From: a virus
Lineage: Duplodnaviria; Caudoviricetes
DNA length: 64,000 nucleotides
Virus record (IMG/VR): IMGVR_UViG_3300034073_002120
Strand: one strand, 5' to 3'
The notes under the pieces: generated by a model
Told to the model about the DNA's origin: nothing
Databases searched by the model: none
Seen by the model: only the letters and a program-made list of their open reading frames with translations
Translations under genes and position numbers: made by a program
Shown here: piece by piece, positions 19,134-25,914 of the stretch
Position numbering within the stretch: the stretch's first letter is position 1
How the letters are laid out: every line of letters starts with the position of its first letter

Positions 19134-21623
19134 TTACGCTCCTAATAATCCAAATCTATTTTGTGAACTTTTTTCTGATGTTTTTACTACTGCAGATGAA
19201 ACTTTTTCTCTATCCATATATACATCTCTATTTTGAGATACTGCCTGTATCATTTCATCCATTTTATTTACTAATGCAGAAATATCAATTCCACCACCAC
19301 CTCCTACTGCATTTGCTAATCCTTGAGGGTTTTTAGTTGCTATTAAATAATCTTCGGGTGATGTAGAAATTACACTACCATTTTGCATTACACCATCGTT
19401 TACACTTTGGGTAGGAGTTTGACCTGCTGATTCCGGTGCACCTCCACCGAAAATTGAACCAACACTTTGAATGACACTACCAATTCCACCTACAAAATTA
19501 TTTATAGGGTCTATTAAATTTTCATGCATCCATTGACCTAAACTTTCAAATATAGTAAAGAATCCTTCTACATAATCCATTATGGTATTAAACATTGCTA
19601 CAAATGGTTTATACATAAATGATAATATACCATCACCTATTTGTGTTAATCCACCTATAAAATCACCTTTAAATAATTTTACAACTCCACCAATTATATC
19701 AAAAACTCCACTAAGTGCGGCAACAACTGTTTCTATTGCAAGAACTACTGGACCATAAAATAATGATGTAATAAATCCAATTACCTCACCAATCTGTTCA
19801 AATATATCAAATAATCCAGTAGATGGGCCCATCAATTTAGATATTGGTGCGAATGCTTTAGATATATGGTCAAATATACTATTTATGATTGTCATAAATG
19901 GTTTTAAGAATCCAACAATTAATCCACCAACTATTTGCATAATTGGTCCTAATGCTTTCATTATTGTCATTCCAATTGGCATGAAAGACATTAATATATC
20001 ATTTCCAATAGCTGCAAGTTGATTACCTGCATTATCGAATTCTGATTGCATTTCTTTTTGTTTTGCTAATTTTTCAGTTTGTACTGCTAAATCTGCGGAA
20101 TTCATTTTACTTATATCACCACCGGTCTTAAGCACTTCCATTGCAGTTGCCAATTCCTTTTCAGATAATTTACCAAATCGTTCTCTAATTCTTTGTTGAT
20201 TTACCAAATCATCATATGACATACCTGTTGCTTTTGCAAGTGCTTCTTGCTCATAGGTATTTAATTTAGATATATCACCAATTGCTGCAACTTCATCTAA
20301 AACTGCTTGCTGTGATTCCAATATCTTTCCATTGGCTGCTAAATAACGTGCCTGACCTAAATTAATATTAGTTCCTAATAATGCACTTGCTTCTAATTCT
20401 GCAGTAATACTATTTTGAAAATCTAATAACCCATCTGCAACTTTACCAGCTTGACCAATTGATGTTCCTAATTTTGCTGCTTGAACTGCTGCTTTAGCAA
20501 GTGCTTCAGGCGAACCATTAAAGTATTTATATGCATATTCGGAATTTTCCGCCATATCTTTAATAACTTGTTGTGGTGCAACATTAGCAAGTTTTGCCAT
20601 TGATACTGTCTGACCAACTAAGTATTGAGATTGTTCTGCGGATAACCCACCTATATTTTGAAATATTTTATTTAATTTAGCACCTTCTTGAACACCTATA
20701 CCAAAGTTTTTATTCAGAGTCATCATAGATGTCAATACTTCATCTGAAGCCATCTCTATACCACCGAATTCATTAGTGAATGTTGCTGCACTTTTTGAAA
20801 TATCTTCTAATGATGCACCCAATGCAGAAGTTTTACCCAACACACTAACCATTTGTTTATCTAATCCAGCAGTTTGTGAATTTAATAAACCAGTTTCTTC
20901 TCTAAATGCTTTTGCTGCTGAGGCTACTTTGTAAAAAGCAAGAACTCCTACTGCTGCTACTGCTGCTATAGCAATTGCTGCTGCTGTATATGGGTTTGAT
21001 AATAATGGACCTAATGTTTTTGATAATTGACCAAATCCGGCAGTCATACCAGATGAAAATGATTTTATAAACCCTTTTTTTTGTTGTAAATTTCTAGTAA
21101 ACATTACACTAAATCCACGTGTAAAATCATTACCCATTTTAGTAATACCACCTTTTATACTATCGTATGGTATTAAACTATCAAATACTTTACCTAATAC
21201 TGGTATTTCCGAAATAGATGATTTTAATGAATCTATAGCATCATTAATACCTTCGGTTACATTTTCTGCAGATGCTGCTACTTGTTTCACAATATCACGT
21301 CTACGCATTTCTATTTGTAGAGCTTGTTGTGCAAATTTATTTTGTTCTAATAATTCTTGTTTTATATCAGAATTAATTCCCCAATTCTGTTTTAATATAG
21401 TACCTTCTCTATTTTTAAGTTTATTTAACGCACCTTGAATATCACCAGTTTCTTCGGTAGTCTTTAAAATAGCAGTTGTTAAATCAACTTCTTTATTTAA
21501 TGCATCAAAATGTCTTTCAGATTGGAGTGCAATAGTATCCATAGCCTTACCAATTGATTTGGTAAGGTATTCCATTTCTTTTAACTCTTGGTTCTGAATT
21601 GAAAATTCTGGTCTTTTTGCCAT
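19134..21623 (-). CDS. Tape measure protein
   Basis: 829 aa helical, Ala/Gly-rich; IEAE.EAS.LLG.NINL.QAR-type motif; hydrophobic periodic C-terminal half; position after tube and chaperone. Confidence 0.8.
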   Translation of the reverse strand: MAKRPEFSIQNQELKEMEYLTKSIGKAMDTIALQSERHFDALNKEVDLTTAILKTTEETGDIQGALNKLKNREGTILKQNWGINSDIKQELLEQNKFAQQALQIEMRRRDIVKQVAASAENVTEGINDAIDSLKSSISEIPVLGKVFDSLIPYDSIKGGITKMGNDFTRGFSVMFTRNLQQKKGFIKSFSSGMTAGFGQLSKTLGPLLSNPYTAAAIAIAAVAAVGVLAFYKVASAAKAFREETGLLNSQTAGLDKQMVSVLGKTSALGASLEDISKSAATFTNEFGGIEMASDEVLTSMMTLNKNFGIGVQEGAKLNKIFQNIGGLSAEQSQYLVGQTVSMAKLANVAPQQVIKDMAENSEYAYKYFNGSPEALAKAAVQAAKLGTSIGQAGKVADGLLDFQNSITAELEASALLGTNINLGQARYLAANGKILESQQAVLDEVAAIGDISKLNTYEQEALAKATGMSYDDLVNQQRIRERFGKLSEKELATAMEVLKTGGDISKMNSADLAVQTEKLAKQKEMQSEFDNAGNQLAAIGNDILMSFMPIGMTIMKALGPIMQIVGGLIVGFLKPFMTIINSIFDHISKAFAPISKLMGPSTGLFDIFEQIGEVIGFITSLFYGPVVLAIETVVAALSGVFDIIGGVVKLFKGDFIGGLTQIGDGILSFMYKPFVAMFNTIMDYVEGFFTIFESLGQWMHENLIDPINNFVGGIGSVIQSVGSIFGGGAPESAGQTPTQSVNDGVMQNGSVISTSPEDYLIATKNPQGLANAVGGGGGIDISALVNKMDEMIQAVSQNRDVYMDREKVSSAVVKTSEKSSQNRFGLLGA

Positions 21624-21626
21624 TTA

Positions 21627-21869
21627 TTATAAATACCTCTTTAAATATTGCGGAACTTCAACACCTCGTTCTTCTGCTTTTTTTGCAAAATCTCGAATCT
21701 TATCTAACTCAACATCGGCTGATTTTAAAGCACTTAATAAATTAGTATTATTACTTAATTTATTTTTTAATATTTTTTTAAAAATTGTAGCTAAAAATCC
21801 AACTTCTACTAACTTATGTTTTTTTTGAATTTCTTTAAATAATTTTTTACTATTTTCGGTTATTTTCAT
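21627..21869 (-). CDS. Small hypothetical protein (start revised to MKITEN at 21869)
   Basis: GGAGA 5 nt before the ATG; the track start overlaps the TATTTATA motif. Confidence 0.6.
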   Translation of the reverse strand: MKITENSKKLFKEIQKKHKLVEVGFLATIFKKILKNKLSNNTNLLSALKSADVELDKIRDFAKKAEERGVEVPQYLKRYL

Positions 21870-21905
21870 GTATTCTCCAATTATACTACTATAAATATAG
21901 AGCAT

Positions 21906-21933
21906 AAAAAAAGTGAGGAAATTATTTCCTCAC
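21906..21933 (-). terminator. Intrinsic terminator
   Basis: GTGAGGAAAT-a-ATTTCCTCAC followed by a T run on the minus strand. Confidence 0.75.
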
Positions 21934-22119
21934 ATTTATATTTGGTCCTCTTGCTTGAGTTGTAGGTTTTTGTGCTTTTTTATTATTTTCTACTTCTTTC
22001 TTTTTGGCCTCTATTAACTCATTATAATAAAAGTTTCTTAAATGAACTGGTAATCTATATACATCCATTTGTGTAAATCCATTGCCATAATAACATAATT
22101 CAAAAATTTGTTTATGCAA
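21922..22119 (-). CDS. Probable C-terminal extension of the tail assembly chaperone (gp51-like), likely made by frameshift
   Basis: Only a TTG start; frame stays open back through the T7 run of the upstream gene (GFFGLPSNYSVILHKQIF). Confidence 0.7.
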   Translation of the reverse strand: MHKQIFELCYYGNGFTQMDVYRLPVHLRNFYYNELIEAKKKEVENNKKAQKPTTQARGPNINVRK

Positions 22120-22132
22120 GATGACGGAGTAA

Positions 22133-22891
22133 TTACTCGGCAGGCCAAAAAAACCCTACACCCATCGTAATTGGGCGTACCTCCGTTTCTCCCGTTATTG
22201 GGTTTTCATAATCAAATTCCATCTTAACATCAGGAGTTAAATCTTTTAAATATTCTCTAAAAGCCTTAGTATCTCTAGTTAAGAAACGATTGTTGATAAA
22301 ATCTACAATAGTACGAGAATCAGATTTACCATCTACTGATGTAATCATATAACGATAACGAGTAGTCAATTCAGATGAACCTGCATTTTTATTTAGACGT
22401 TGCATTGCTTTAACATCTGCATCAATTGCTTTCTCATCACCATGTGTAAGTATTTTGAATTCAATTTCCGTATTTGTAGTTGGTGTTTTAAACTTATAAC
22501 GATTATCTCTATTTAATTTATTTACATCAACTTCCTTCGTTTGAACTTTTGATAAATCTACTGAAATTTCTTCGGTTTCACCATCATCGGTTGTAAGTTC
22601 AAATTTATATTGTGAACCATATCCTAAAATACGTGTTGCTAACATAATAGCGTTTTTATCACCTAAAATAATATCATCTACATTAATTGATTTATCAACT
22701 ATGATAGATTCAAATAATTTATCTAATACAATACCTTTTTTAATCAAATTTTGTGAAGTAAGGATTTCTTCTTCCTTAGCTGTCATATATTTGATTTCAA
22801 TTGTACCTTTTGATAATGGATTTGATTCTGGATAGCATTTACCTTCCGATGGTAATGTTATAACTTCTGTTGGAAATGTATTTTCACTCAT
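22133..22891 (-). CDS. Tail assembly chaperone / T4 gp26-like baseplate hub assembly protein
   Basis: LPSEG..Y...IKYMTAKEEEILT...GD.NA..LATRI.GYG; lies between tube and tape measure; ends GFFWPAE. Confidence 0.75.
   Translation of the reverse strand: MSENTFPTEVITLPSEGKCYPESNPLSKGTIEIKYMTAKEEEILTSQNLIKKGIVLDKLFESIIVDKSINVDDIILGDKNAIMLATRILGYGSQYKFELTTDDGETEEISVDLSKVQTKEVDVNKLNRDNRYKFKTPTTNTEIEFKILTHGDEKAIDADVKAMQRLNKNAGSSELTTRYRYMITSVDGKSDSRTIVDFINNRFLTRDTKAFREYLKDLTPDVKMEFDYENPITGETEVRPITMGVGFFWPAE
22147..22156 (-). other. Putative programmed frameshift site GGG TTT TTT T
   Basis: Seven Ts; a +1 (or -2) shift joins 22133..22891 to 21922..22119 without a stop. Confidence 0.7.
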
Positions 22892-22947
22892 ATTATTAAC
22901 CTTTATTTTGTTATTTGTATATAAATATATAATTTACAAAAAGTTAT

Positions 22948-22976
22948 AAAAAAAGGAGATATTTCTATCTCCTTTC
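22948..22976 (-). terminator. Intrinsic terminator after tail tube
   Basis: AAAGGAGAT-agaaat-ATCTCCTTT followed by Ts. Confidence 0.8.
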
Positions 22977-22999
22977 TTATTTTTATTCTTAACTTTATA

Positions 23000-23491
23000 T
23001 TAGAATTCTAAGATTGCATAATCATATGCCAACGTTAATGTAATATCAGCAGGGTCTGTTGCATTTGACCAATCTAAATCGTTGAAAGTTGCGTTTAAGA
23101 TAAATGCACCTTTGATTTTCCATTGCTCAATTTTATCACCTACTGGTCCTAACATATAGATGTCAACATCTTTTTTGTAGAAATCGGCATATCCATCACG
23201 ACCTGTTAAAGATTCATGTGATAAACGAACCCACTCCATCACCGCTTGTGCACCAGATGGAACAATTGGGTCAAATAAAGTGATTTCAATATCTTGCCAA
23301 GTCCCTTTTCCTTTTAACTTTCTTTTTACGTTAATATGGTTTAATTCAACTGCTTCGAATTGAATTGAAGGTCTATTTGCTGTTTTGATAAGATATGAAG
23401 GAATACCATCGATTTCCATGATGAAACGATGTTTCATCTTTGGTTCGAAATTGGTGTAGAACATCTCGTTAAATTCTAATACTTCTGCCAT
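23000..23491 (-). CDS. Tail tube protein (gp19-like)
   Basis: EPKMKHRFIMEIDGIP...W.DIEITLFDPIVPSGAQAVMEW...LTLAYDYA; follows the sheath. Confidence 0.9.
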   Translation of the reverse strand: MAEVLEFNEMFYTNFEPKMKHRFIMEIDGIPSYLIKTANRPSIQFEAVELNHINVKRKLKGKGTWQDIEITLFDPIVPSGAQAVMEWVRLSHESLTGRDGYADFYKKDVDIYMLGPVGDKIEQWKIKGAFILNATFNDLDWSNATDPADITLTLAYDYAILEF

Positions 23492-23547: not shown

Positions 23548-25914
23548 TTACGCTGAGAATGATGCTCCTGTTGGTAAGATGTTGAAATCTAATACGATAA
23601 ATTCAGCTGTTTTAGTAGGTTGTAAGAAAATTTGACCTGCTAAGATGTTTCTATCGATTACATCAGGAGTGTTGTTTGATTCATCCATCACTACTCTAAA
23701 TGCATATAAACCTTGTCTTTGTTGGATTCCCTCCAAATATGGATTTACAGTATTTAAGAATCTTGAACGTGTTGTTGCTGTATTTTGTTCGAACACTAAG
23801 TATCTTGATGTAGAAGCGATATACTTCTTAACTTTGATAAGTAATCTTCTTACGTTAATTCTATCTAATGCAGATGATTTTTCTTGTAAGGTTTTCTGTC
23901 CGAATGCCACAATACCCTCACCAGGGAAAGAAGCGATTGGATTTACTTTACCTTCATATAATTCATCTCTTTCAGAATGTGTTAATCTATTCAATACTGA
24001 AACTGCTCCAACGATTCCACCTCTATTCAAACCTGCTGGTGCGAACCATTCTGCTGCAACTGCATCGTTTGCTGCGTATATACCTGGCATCAATACTGAT
24101 GGTGGTACTGCAGTTAATTTATTGGTGTTTCTATCGATTGTTTTAACCCACGGGTAGTAAGTACCAACATAGTTAGAATCAACGTTTCCTGCCTGCTCTA
24201 CTGCCTGAGAAATAGTATCGTTTACTGATGTTACATCACCGATGAAGAATACATCTTCTCTATTCTCACACATTTCAGAAATATAATCGAATACATAAGA
24301 GTGTAATCTACGAACTACACCAGGTGCTGCGATTAAGTTAATATCGAAATCATCTGGATTAGAAATAGCATCGATTGCTTTTTTGTATGCAACTGAACCA
24401 CTTGCGATTGAAGTAGCTAAATCAAATCCTTGTGAGTTTCCTTCACTTAAATCAGTTCCTTTGTCAATTGTTCTTGTTGGAGTTACACCATCAAATCCAC
24501 CTTGAAAACCTACTATAAATTGTCTTTTAGCGATATCAGTTGAGCTTGAACCAGTCAATTCATATCCTAAGTTAATTGTAGATACTGAACCACTTACTAT
24601 TGCAGTTACTGCTGCATCAAATGCGAAGATACTATCTGCAGATGCGTTAGCAGGAATTGGTTTTAAGTATTGGTTGTTGTTTATCTTAATTGTTGTAGAT
24701 TCTAAATCAATACCAGAAAACTTAGTTGTAGATGAAGAAGTATTTACTGCAGAACCAGTTGAATAAATCACTGCAGGGATATTTGAACCTTCAATTGGTG
24801 TATCATATCCAGCGTGACCAAATGGACCAGCGATGATTGGGAATGAACCTTCTTCTTTTACTTCTACTCTAATGAACTTAGAACGATTTGCATAATCACC
24901 AGTTTCGTTTTGTTTACCATTTGCATCTATTGTTACATCTCTATCACCAATTACTTTAGCGATATAGTTTGGAGATGCCGGGTCTAAGTTTACATTATTA
25001 TATGTTTCTAATACCGTCTTCTTCTTATCAGTATCTGCAAAACCACGAACTGTCACAGTAAATGTAGCGTAATCAGTTGCTGCAGATTCACCTGCTGCTT
25101 TTACGTTTGAAATACCGATTTTGTATTCAGTATTGTATGGGTTACCATCACCTAATGTGTGGAAACGGAATAAATCATGTCTTTCACCACTAATCAATTG
25201 AGATTTGATGAATGGAGTAGATGCATACGATGGGCCATCAGTAGCAGAGAATTCTTGTGTATTCAATTGAACTAATGATAAAGATGCAGAACCTGCACTT
25301 AAATAAGCCGCTAAATCCGTTGCTGTTTTCTCAAAGTATGTGTAAGTGTATGCTTTTTTAGTTCCGAATGGTGATTCACCAAATACATCACTAATATCAT
25401 TACCATCTGCAGGTGCAATAGAAACCGAACCACTATATGCGATTGATGAACCACTAATAGTGAATAATGAATCTGTACCACTTCCTTCGGTGAATACTAA
25501 TGATGCCGTTGCAAATCCAATATCGATTGAACCAGATTTTGTAGCATGTAAAGTAGCAATTAAGTGTGAACTACCACTAGCGTATATTCCAGATGCTGAA
25601 CCTGATATTAAAGTTGCTTTAATACCAATCGGTGCAACTTGAGAATATCCACCAACGTGTCCAACACGAACAATAGTCACTGTCCCTGCTTCTCTTAAAT
25701 AATTTTGAACTGCATATCCTGTATAGTATGTTCCATCAGGTGTGCCGAATATTTCCTCAAATTCTGATTGTGTATTAACCACAGTTGGTAAGAACGCCGG
25801 TCCTTTAGCAAAAGGTCCTACTATTGCTGCTCCTATTTCTCCAATTCCCTGTGCTAAGAATGAAAGGTCATTTTCTCTTGTGAATACACCAGGTGATACA
25901 ATCTTTTCTGCCAT
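23548..25914 (-). CDS. Tail sheath protein (gp18-like)
   Basis: SPGVFTRENDLS, WFAPAGLNRG, ALDRINVRRLLI, IFLQPTKTAEFIVLDF. Confidence 0.95.
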   Translation of the reverse strand: MAEKIVSPGVFTRENDLSFLAQGIGEIGAAIVGPFAKGPAFLPTVVNTQSEFEEIFGTPDGTYYTGYAVQNYLREAGTVTIVRVGHVGGYSQVAPIGIKATLISGSASGIYASGSSHLIATLHATKSGSIDIGFATASLVFTEGSGTDSLFTISGSSIAYSGSVSIAPADGNDISDVFGESPFGTKKAYTYTYFEKTATDLAAYLSAGSASLSLVQLNTQEFSATDGPSYASTPFIKSQLISGERHDLFRFHTLGDGNPYNTEYKIGISNVKAAGESAATDYATFTVTVRGFADTDKKKTVLETYNNVNLDPASPNYIAKVIGDRDVTIDANGKQNETGDYANRSKFIRVEVKEEGSFPIIAGPFGHAGYDTPIEGSNIPAVIYSTGSAVNTSSSTTKFSGIDLESTTIKINNNQYLKPIPANASADSIFAFDAAVTAIVSGSVSTINLGYELTGSSSTDIAKRQFIVGFQGGFDGVTPTRTIDKGTDLSEGNSQGFDLATSIASGSVAYKKAIDAISNPDDFDINLIAAPGVVRRLHSYVFDYISEMCENREDVFFIGDVTSVNDTISQAVEQAGNVDSNYVGTYYPWVKTIDRNTNKLTAVPPSVLMPGIYAANDAVAAEWFAPAGLNRGGIVGAVSVLNRLTHSERDELYEGKVNPIASFPGEGIVAFGQKTLQEKSSALDRINVRRLLIKVKKYIASTSRYLVFEQNTATTRSRFLNTVNPYLEGIQQRQGLYAFRVVMDESNNTPDVIDRNILAGQIFLQPTKTAEFIVLDFNILPTGASFSA

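Follow-up and report, generated by a model that had tools for sequence, protein, structure and literature searches.

The stretch of DNA considered here, which we refer to as the window, is 64,000 nucleotides (nt) long and comes from a large freshwater phage of the Caudoviricetes (IMG/VR record IMGVR_UViG_3300034073_002120). It carries two overlapping open reading frames (ORFs) that meet at a run of seven T residues; all genes of this region lie on the minus strand, and coordinates are given in window numbering. The first frame, ORF1 (22891..22133), encodes a 252-amino-acid protein of the gp26/gp51 family of baseplate-hub assembly proteins. This short product ends ...MGVGFFWPAE, the 3' end of the gene reading GGG TTT TTT TGG CCT GCC GAG TAA. 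The U7 run of the transcript (22153..22147), to which we assign the shift site, is read in frame 0 as UUU UUU U(GG). In the +1 frame a TAG lies directly 5' of GGT TTT TTT GGC, after which the frame is open for 77 codons (22155..21922), reading GFFGLPSNYSVILHKQIF..., up to a stop codon at 21924..21922. This open frame has no start of its own: there is no ATG near its beginning, and a TTG at 22119 is the sole start-like codon. The part past the run, ORF2 (22146..21922), is a +1-frame extension of 74 codons and a stop that begins GLPSNYSVILHKQIFELCYYGNGFTQMDVYRLPVHLRNFYYNELIEAKKKE... and finishes in a basic tail. Joining the two frames by a +1 shift gives a conceptual fusion of 322 residues with the junction ...GVGFF-GLPSNY. 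Immediately upstream of ORF1 is the tail tube gene (23491..23000), of the T4 gp19 family (PF06841, E = 2.3e-10; phrog_4542, E = 4e-28). The initial annotation, made from the sequence alone, had proposed a programmed +1/-2 frameshift at this place in a tail assembly chaperone gene; its coordinates, sequence and frame arithmetic are all correct, and the feature is on the minus strand.

A tblastn search against cultured-phage records gave four relatives, Flavobacterium phage immuto, Microcystis phage Mel-JY01, an uncultured 484-kb phage and Streptococcus phage GXN1, and inspection by eye found a homologous downstream frame at +1 in all four records. A scan of IMG/VR matched 597 relatives, from which 80 loci with 47–87% identity were kept. 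These loci, the four phage records and the window make up a set of 85 loci that was analysed by script. The +1 frame is open for 60–110 codons beyond the ORF1 stop in 84 of the 85; in the remaining one (L029) it reaches the edge of the locus after 17 codons. Wherever an ORF2 homologue was detectable by tblastn it was at offset +1 (76/76), and the remaining alternative frame is not conserved across the set. The run is located 4–8 codons before the ORF1 stop in every locus, and the nearest upstream stop in the +1 frame and the earliest downstream stop in frame 0 confine the shift to 17 nt that contain it. The site reads TTTTTTT followed by GG in 49 loci and by AC in 20, and T8 in one; interrupted forms are TTTCTTT (11 loci), TTTCTAT (two loci, L003 and L076), TTCTTTT (one locus, L042) and TTCTTTC (one locus, Streptococcus phage GXN1). 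A run of at least seven U residues is present in 70/85 loci and an interrupted run in 15/85, with UUU followed by U or C inside the permitted shift window in all 85. Around the site, conservation peaks in the U run, at 1.3–2.0 bits per position. Its synonymous third positions hold 1.8–1.9 bits, compared with at most 0.4 bits at the five preceding third positions, and the Phe slip codons are TTT in 132 of 134 cases, compared with 74% TTT among the other Phe codons of ORF1. The arrangement of the two frames is far beyond chance. The conserved run and the uniform +1 offset support the shift into the +1 frame proposed for this T7 run; the conservation of the slippery site that the initial annotation had wished to see checked is there, the variant sites keeping UUU and a pyrimidine.

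Runs of seven T residues are classic sites of insertion and deletion errors, and the broken frame could be put down to a homopolymer error in sequencing or assembly, or to a decaying pseudogene. The same frame architecture is, however, found at 85/85 loci from many samples, and an independent contig, from the metagenome of a different study, carries the same T7 and shows no difference over 22087..22924. The best 120 of more than 7000 related proteins in a collection of 5.8 billion all end at about 250 residues, and no in-frame T6-type fusion is found among these 120. Both ORFs are, moreover, under clear protein-level constraint. We give an error or a pseudogene a negligible chance of accounting for the locus.

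Conservation of the ORF2 protein starts at the first codon past the run. The pattern is G/T-L-P/T-x-x-Y-x-x-x-L-H-x-Q-I-F-E...G-N-G-F...V-Y-x-M-P-x-x-L-R-x-F-Y...K-K-K-E followed by the basic tail, and a model built with a 148-sequence alignment has three helices with a predicted local distance difference test score (pLDDT) of 89. Neither ORF2 alone in BFVD nor the fusion in the PDB or AFDB Swiss-Prot, AFDB being without viral proteins, gave a significant fold match. Searching 1.84 billion representative proteins with an ORF2 profile returned 1266 clusters; nearly all are short stand-alone calls, and a few are proteins of 308–313 residues that bear the ORF2 domain at their C-terminus. One of these, P0246, is a natural single ORF of 309 residues that aligns over its full length with the conceptual fusion (P0001) at 34% identity (E = 1e-62), without a gap at the junction (GVGFFGL against GDVFFNL; MGVGFFGLPSNYSVILHKQIF against LGDVFFNLDEYYRLNLHEEIF). 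Because P0246 is collinear with the conceptual fusion, the fused ORF1–ORF2 architecture is one that occurs in nature, and the long product of about 322 residues suggested earlier is thereby supported.

It could be argued that ORF2 is a separate gene, made unfused from its own non-canonical or internal start (the TTG at 22119, for example) or by termination and reinitiation. Gene callers routinely give it as a stand-alone ORF of 50–130 residues, and in one distant relative (L088) the +1 frame could begin at a GTG that has GGAG 9 nt upstream of it. Between the run and ORF2 codon 16, however, no start-like codon is conserved; the commonest ATGs lie 16 and 31–33 codons in, inside the conserved domain, and the residues ahead of any such start (GL-P/T-x-x-Y) are themselves conserved. 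At the position of TTG 22119, where independent initiation would have spoken against a shift, a start-like codon occurs in 7 of 79 distinct sequences; this lack of conservation favours the shift, and the natural fused proteins place the domain on an ORF1 body. A separate ORF2 is thus quite improbable. In public records ORF2 is either a separate hypothetical gene or not annotated at all, so annotation pipelines miss the long product. The family abounds in phage metagenomes from fresh and sea water, with over 7000 matches to ORF1 and 1266 clusters for ORF2.

The frame arithmetic permits either a +1 or a −2 shift, and both allow perfect re-pairing of tRNA-Phe on U7. The variant sites are more restrictive. 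At UUU_CUA_U (L003 and L076) the only re-pairing is from UUU to UUC at the first codon, and at UUC_UUU_U (L042) and UUC_UUU_C (GXN1) it is from UUU to UUY at the second; UUU_CUU_U offers either UUU to UUC or a prfB-like move from CUU to UUU. Judged from these sequences, a +1 slip of tRNA-Phe on UUU_Y is the one mechanism compatible with all the variant sites, which is why we favour +1 over −2. In bacteria UUU_Y is known as a tetranucleotide prone to +1 slips, for which a nearby stop codon is not required (PMC5009743). A −2 ribosomal frameshift would have the P-site tRNA-Phe on the second UUU slip back by two bases to give GFFFGL, with one extra Phe; it shares the frame arithmetic, its re-pairing is perfect in U7, and a near-cognate −2 slip is conceivable for CUU in TTTCTTT. 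At three of the variant site types (TTTCTAT, TTCTTTT and TTCTTTC), however, −2 re-pairing is impossible. At the FF position the natural long forms carry two residues, and they align ungapped with the +1 product, so their length favours FFGL over FFFGL, and a hairpin upstream of the run, described below, would hinder backward movement (PMC6321510). A −2 shift is therefore very improbable, and of the '+1/−2' wording of the initial annotation the +1 part stands while the −2 part is disfavoured by the variant sites and by the FFGL length.

A terminator scan located an 8 bp hairpin, UACGCCCA-AUUACGA-UGGGUGUA (22179..22157), which ends 3 nt before the U run and together with it resembles an intrinsic terminator. 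The upstream stretch of the window folds at −11.2 kcal/mol as 45 nt and at −10.7 kcal/mol as 36 nt, the latter with a z score of −2.55 against third-position permutations. We surveyed the 36 nt before the run in 72 distinct relatives. The mean energy is −8.2 kcal/mol, compared with −2.4 to −3.6 kcal/mol for windows further upstream. Against synonymous-codon resamples the median z score is −1.40, with 93% of the relatives below zero and 40% at an empirical p of at most 0.05, whereas control windows have a median z score near 0 and 4–12% at that level. Against permutations that keep local composition, 82% are below zero (controls 43–53%). The last paired base is 0–7 nt from the run in 67/72 relatives. 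Loci with interrupted runs have, as a group, an upstream segment of −8.0 kcal/mol, compared with −8.2 kcal/mol in T7 loci; Streptococcus phage GXN1 has no upstream stem. The stem is kept in some clades despite a changed peptide motif (e.g. L068 and L055). Across 28 relatives the pairing scheme of the window reaches only 60% pairing, which the scheme shifted by +1 matches; it is the upstream folding propensity that is conserved and not the pairing register. In vitro, a stable hairpin beside the E site of 70S bacterial ribosomes raises +1 frameshifting and lowers −1 frameshifting (PMC6321510), and the geometry found here fits stimulation of this kind.

The same hairpin brings in transcriptional slippage, the main rival for the T7 lineages. 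Here, a nascent-RNA hairpin beside the 10-nt GGGU7 hybrid would cause forward realignment on the A7 template, and the resulting U6 mRNAs would encode the same GFFGL fusion. Conservation of the full U7, and not just of UUU_U, would suit such a mechanism. It also has a precedent in a Roseiflexus insertion sequence, where, according to the account of Penno et al. (2015) in PMC5009743, a stem-loop 5'-adjacent to the slippage motif leads to a programmed one-nucleotide RNA deletion and thus to the +1 frame; by that account the motif is U5C5 with the hairpin directly adjacent, whereas the window has U7 after a 3-nt GGG spacer. The 15/85 interrupted runs, on the other hand, would need rC:dA or terminal mismatches for realignment, yet keep ORF2 at +1, and these loci keep an equally stable upstream hairpin, except for GXN1. 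Both points speak against slippage as the general mechanism. The RNA data consist of assembled contigs that cover small parts of the region; one metatranscriptome contig from a relative spans the site without an insertion or deletion, which is weak evidence as assembled contigs drop rare variants. We hold transcriptional slippage to be unlikely, though it is the alternative to be taken most seriously.

Downstream of the run, the initial annotation had pointed to a palindrome, GAGTAATTACTC (22138..22127), which lies 8 nt past the run and contains the frame-0 stop codon. With a 4 bp stem of −3.4 kcal/mol and a z score of +0.43 it is no more stable than shuffled sequence and is probably not a stimulator; the structured element is the one upstream of the run. 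The 42 nt past the run show no conserved structure in 78 relatives (median z score 0.04). Two subclades (L053/L056/L059 and L055/L058/L074) form strong 6–7 bp GC hairpins about 5 nt past the run, and the 3' end of each loop holds the frame-0 stop; the stems show compensatory changes that alter amino acids (e.g. GCCGCC/GGCGGC versus GCCGGU/ACCGGC). A GGAGG is found at 22180-22184, just before the upstream hairpin and 26–30 nt upstream of the U run. It recurs at −40..−18 in 48/72 distinct relatives, GAG making up only 23% of the Glu codons elsewhere in ORF1; its distance from the run is too great for it to act as in prfB.

ORF1 matches phrog_150 ('baseplate hub') with E = 1.1e-11 over profile positions 12–233 of 282; T4 gp26 and gp51 match the same profile with E = 7e-71 and 3e-84. 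Against Pfam the ORF1 of the window gave no match at E ≤ 0.1, and an 87%-identical homologue (P0005) matches PF12322 (T4_baseplate) with 32.2 bits, the cut-off being 24.5. The AlphaFold2 model has a pLDDT of 86 overall and of more than 90 over most of the length of ORF1 (10-residue block means of 91–98 for residues 11–240). Searching BFVD with it gave 58 matches at E ≤ 1e-3, the best at 3.9e-19, with hit-normalised template-modelling scores of up to 0.86, including matches named baseplate hub subunit, assembly protein ('T4-like') or chaperone. These matches place ORF1 among the baseplate-hub assembly chaperones of the T4 gp26/gp51 family (PF12322/phrog_150). Paired cysteines of the CxxC type, found in T4 gp26/gp51 and also in P0246 and the short paralogue of L086, are absent from the window protein. 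The motif is outside any formal definition of the family, and we count its absence as a difference that does not exclude the protein from it. Compared with P0246 and L086:3150-3995, both pairs (CPxC...CxxC) are lost: the window has TTDDGETE and ENPITGETE where relatives have CPNCEKE/CPACGEE and CSACEY/CDSCGH. The putative zinc-ribbon-like element appears to be dispensable in this lineage.

In T4 the short form is gp26 (208 residues), which ends just past an FF motif (...GLKEFFELL), and the long form is its paralogue gp51 (249 residues), which extends further at the C-terminus by about 45 residues. The two proteins function in hub assembly and are counted among the chaperones, gp51 being an assembly factor for the hub/tape-measure complex that is not in the virion (PMC3004832). 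Their genes are diverged paralogues on opposite strands, with no frameshift, whereas the window lineage has one gene for both forms; gene 51 lies upstream of genes 27, 28 and 29, of which 29 is the tape measure gene. In two contigs of uncultured phages (L086 and L087) the gene of a short paralogue (282 or 272 residues) lies immediately before the long-form gene. The short paralogue of L086 has 42% identity to the ORF1 of the window and ends ...IPIGVNFLWPD, that is, at the same point and with nearly the same tail as ...MGVGFFWPAE. By comparison, five complete or near-complete relatives of the window have a single phrog_150 gene. Read most simply, these sequences suggest that two forms, one short and one long, are needed in the family; they would be supplied by two genes in some phages, T4 included, and by recoding of one gene here.

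Whether the two extensions are related is less clear-cut. ORF2 and the extension of gp51 occupy corresponding positions, 2/32 ORF2s match phrog_634 at E = 0.003 and the match of one homologue (P0179) to phrog_150 reaches as far as position 277 of the 282 in the profile. When five relatives were searched in all six frames with phrog_634, there was no match. Homology of ORF2 to the C-terminal extension of gp51 is no more than suggestive. The pairing of a gp26-like body with a gp51-like tail that was initially annotated holds for the body, by profile, Pfam and fold, and for the tail agrees in position, its homology being suggestive. T4-type gp51 proteins carry a second Pfam family, PF28602, in precomputed annotations; our local Pfam search did not report PF28602 for T4 gp51.

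We favour, with a probability of about 0.6, a reading in which one gene gives two products of a hub/tube assembly chaperone by a +1 ribosomal slip of tRNA-Phe in U7. Most ribosomes would read ORF1 to its stop codon and make the 252-residue short form. A fraction would slip by +1 with tRNA-Phe in the P site on UUU_U, re-pairing perfectly with the next UUU, and would go on to read GGC CUG... and add the 74-residue three-helix domain and basic tail, giving the 322-residue long form. The hairpin, which can re-form behind the ribosome and whose end is about one codon before the run, probably favours the forward slip. If the pair works like T4 gp26/gp51 and lambda G/GT, the body common to both forms would attach to the hub or tape-measure complex and the extension would add a second contact, with the efficiency of the shift setting the ratio of short to long form. 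The frames and their conservation, the membership of the family and the fused and duplicated forms in nature are read directly from the sequences, whereas a ribosomal origin of the shift, a role for the hairpin, the efficiency and what each product does are inferred from them.

Several observations weigh against this reading. The A-site codons after the slip are UGG, UAC, UUC, CUU, CUA or CGU across the loci, and UGG and UAC are not obviously slow; no Shine–Dalgarno (SD)-like element is found at the 3-nt spacing of prfB. The hairpin and U7 are terminator-like, with the stem ending 0–7 nt before the run in 67/72 relatives, as transcriptional slippage would have it. The excess stability upstream of the run shrinks under the local-composition null (median z score −0.79), and RNAalifold found no single conserved upstream hairpin, the register differing between clades. 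The relatedness of the sequences makes the locus counts overstate their independence. As to the extension, hhalign found nothing between the ORF2 alignment and gp51, and between long-form and gp51 alignments it paired the N-terminal bodies only, with low probability; a hidden Markov model of T4-type gp51 C-termini gave no significant match (E ≥ 0.1).

A sister clade has the second frame on the other side. In LR756511 and eight IMG/VR relatives (L091–L098), nine loci with seven distinct sequences, an ORF2-type domain (DEQFFFLYH...YPINERKYxIxKFIEQKEKE) is in the −1 frame in 9/9 cases. The site is xxU_UUU_UUC, with U_UUU_UUC a canonical X_XXY_YYZ heptamer, and falls on the same GFF codons. Folding energies of the 36 nt before it are only −2.1 to −3.1 kcal/mol in 6/9 loci (4/7 distinct sequences); in the other three (L090, L095 and L098) they are −5.8 to −9.9 kcal/mol, compared with the mean of −8.2 kcal/mol in the +1 lineage. 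The contrast in flanking structure between the clades, with only seven distinct −1 sequences, is suggestive. On sequence grounds, then, the gene family has three solutions: a −1 shift, a +1 shift and two genes. A more distant +1-offset relative (L088:2494-2553) has UUC UUC UGG at the FF position and no UUU; it has ACC UUU CGU 17 codons before the FF position, and an FFG motif in ORF2, past the ORF1 stop. Its shift site or mode of expression may differ from that of the main lineage.

The tail sheath gene (25914..23548) is also found in this region. Past ORF2 there is an ORF of 92 residues (21905..21627) and then a gene for a putative tape measure protein of 829 residues (21623..19134). The latter gave no family match in Pfam or PHROG profile searches, and its label comes from its position and from synteny with the gene of Flavobacterium phage immuto that is annotated as a tail tape measure protein. 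A 9 bp hairpin, GTGAGGAAA-TAA-TTTCCTCAC, followed by T7 (21913-21933) forms an intrinsic-terminator-like site; the ORF2 stop codon sits in its loop, and it lies directly 5' of the 92-residue ORF and the tape measure gene. Another terminator-like hairpin with a T run (22949-22978) is found between the tube stop and the ORF1 start. Such sites thus bracket the chaperone gene, and the terminator scan gave seven in 2.1 kb where 0.4 were expected.

Elements of the proposed shift are known from +1 sites elsewhere, at which P-site tRNA-Phe likewise moves to the codon one base forward. The site proposed for Yersinia YopN-TyeA, UUU_UGG, is the sequence of the window; that site has not been confirmed by mutagenesis (PMC3789692). 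Influenza A PA-X uses UUU_CGU, as found in Streptococcus phage GXN1 (PMC5009743). The CUU_U of prfB is resembled by the CUU_UGG of the immuto clade (PMC5009743); prfB differs in having a stop codon in the A site and an SD element 3 nt upstream, and the window has neither. The closest counterpart of the upstream structure is the engineered refolding hairpin (Cho et al. 2013, PMC3639245; Huang et al. 2018, PMC6321510), in which a stable hairpin lies directly against the E site at a sequence prone to +1 slips and acts on 70S ribosomes in a manner that depends on stability and proximity. Those constructs are synthetic, with 12 bp GC-rich stems on CUUUGA and without release factor 2, whereas the stems of the window lineage are natural, 5–10 bp long and within a coding region, and are candidate stimulators. 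This candidate 5' stimulator is open to test by simple synonymous mutations.

We found no report in the literature of a frameshift in genes of the gp26/gp51 family. It is possible, and we propose it tentatively, that sister clades switched the direction of the frameshift at the same GFF codons, that a hairpin re-forming behind the ribosome drives the +1 slip as the first natural case of its kind and that T4 gp26/gp51 are the duplicated-gene equivalent of the G/GT pair. If this is true, the hairpin would be the natural counterpart of the engineered upstream stimulator, and the two T4 proteins, gp26 as the short one and gp51 as the long one, would form a lambda G/GT-type pair of chaperones. The three routes to the pair (two genes, −1 and +1) would make a natural system for studying what sets the direction of a frameshift.

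Xu, Hendrix and Duda are said to have described in 2004 a conserved frameshift of tail assembly chaperone genes. The closest comparison for the locus as a whole is with lambda gpG/gpGT and also P2 E/E+E' (PMC5009743): as there, two overlapping ORFs lie between the tail tube and tape measure genes, the first of them has a conserved slippery run close to its end, both products, short and long, have a common N-terminal body, and the second ORF of the window has no start of its own. The G/GT-like logic between tube and tape measure that was initially proposed is supported by this comparison. The name 'tail assembly chaperone' applies by position and analogy and not as membership of a known family of that name: ORF1, ORF2 and the fusion have no chaperone match in Pfam or PHROG and no similarity to known tail-assembly-chaperone families, single ORF2 homologues matching phrog_313 and phrog_32580 at no better than E = 0.1, and the protein is instead a member of the gp26/gp51 hub-chaperone family. 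The window differs from lambda G/GT in that the shift is +1 and not −1 on an X_XXY_YYZ heptamer, the body is much larger (252 residues) and the 92-residue ORF separates the pair from the tape measure gene. Recoding into a short and a long tail-assembly chaperone is a known kind of arrangement; what would be new here is the family in which it occurs, the less common forward direction and the candidate stimulator upstream of the run.

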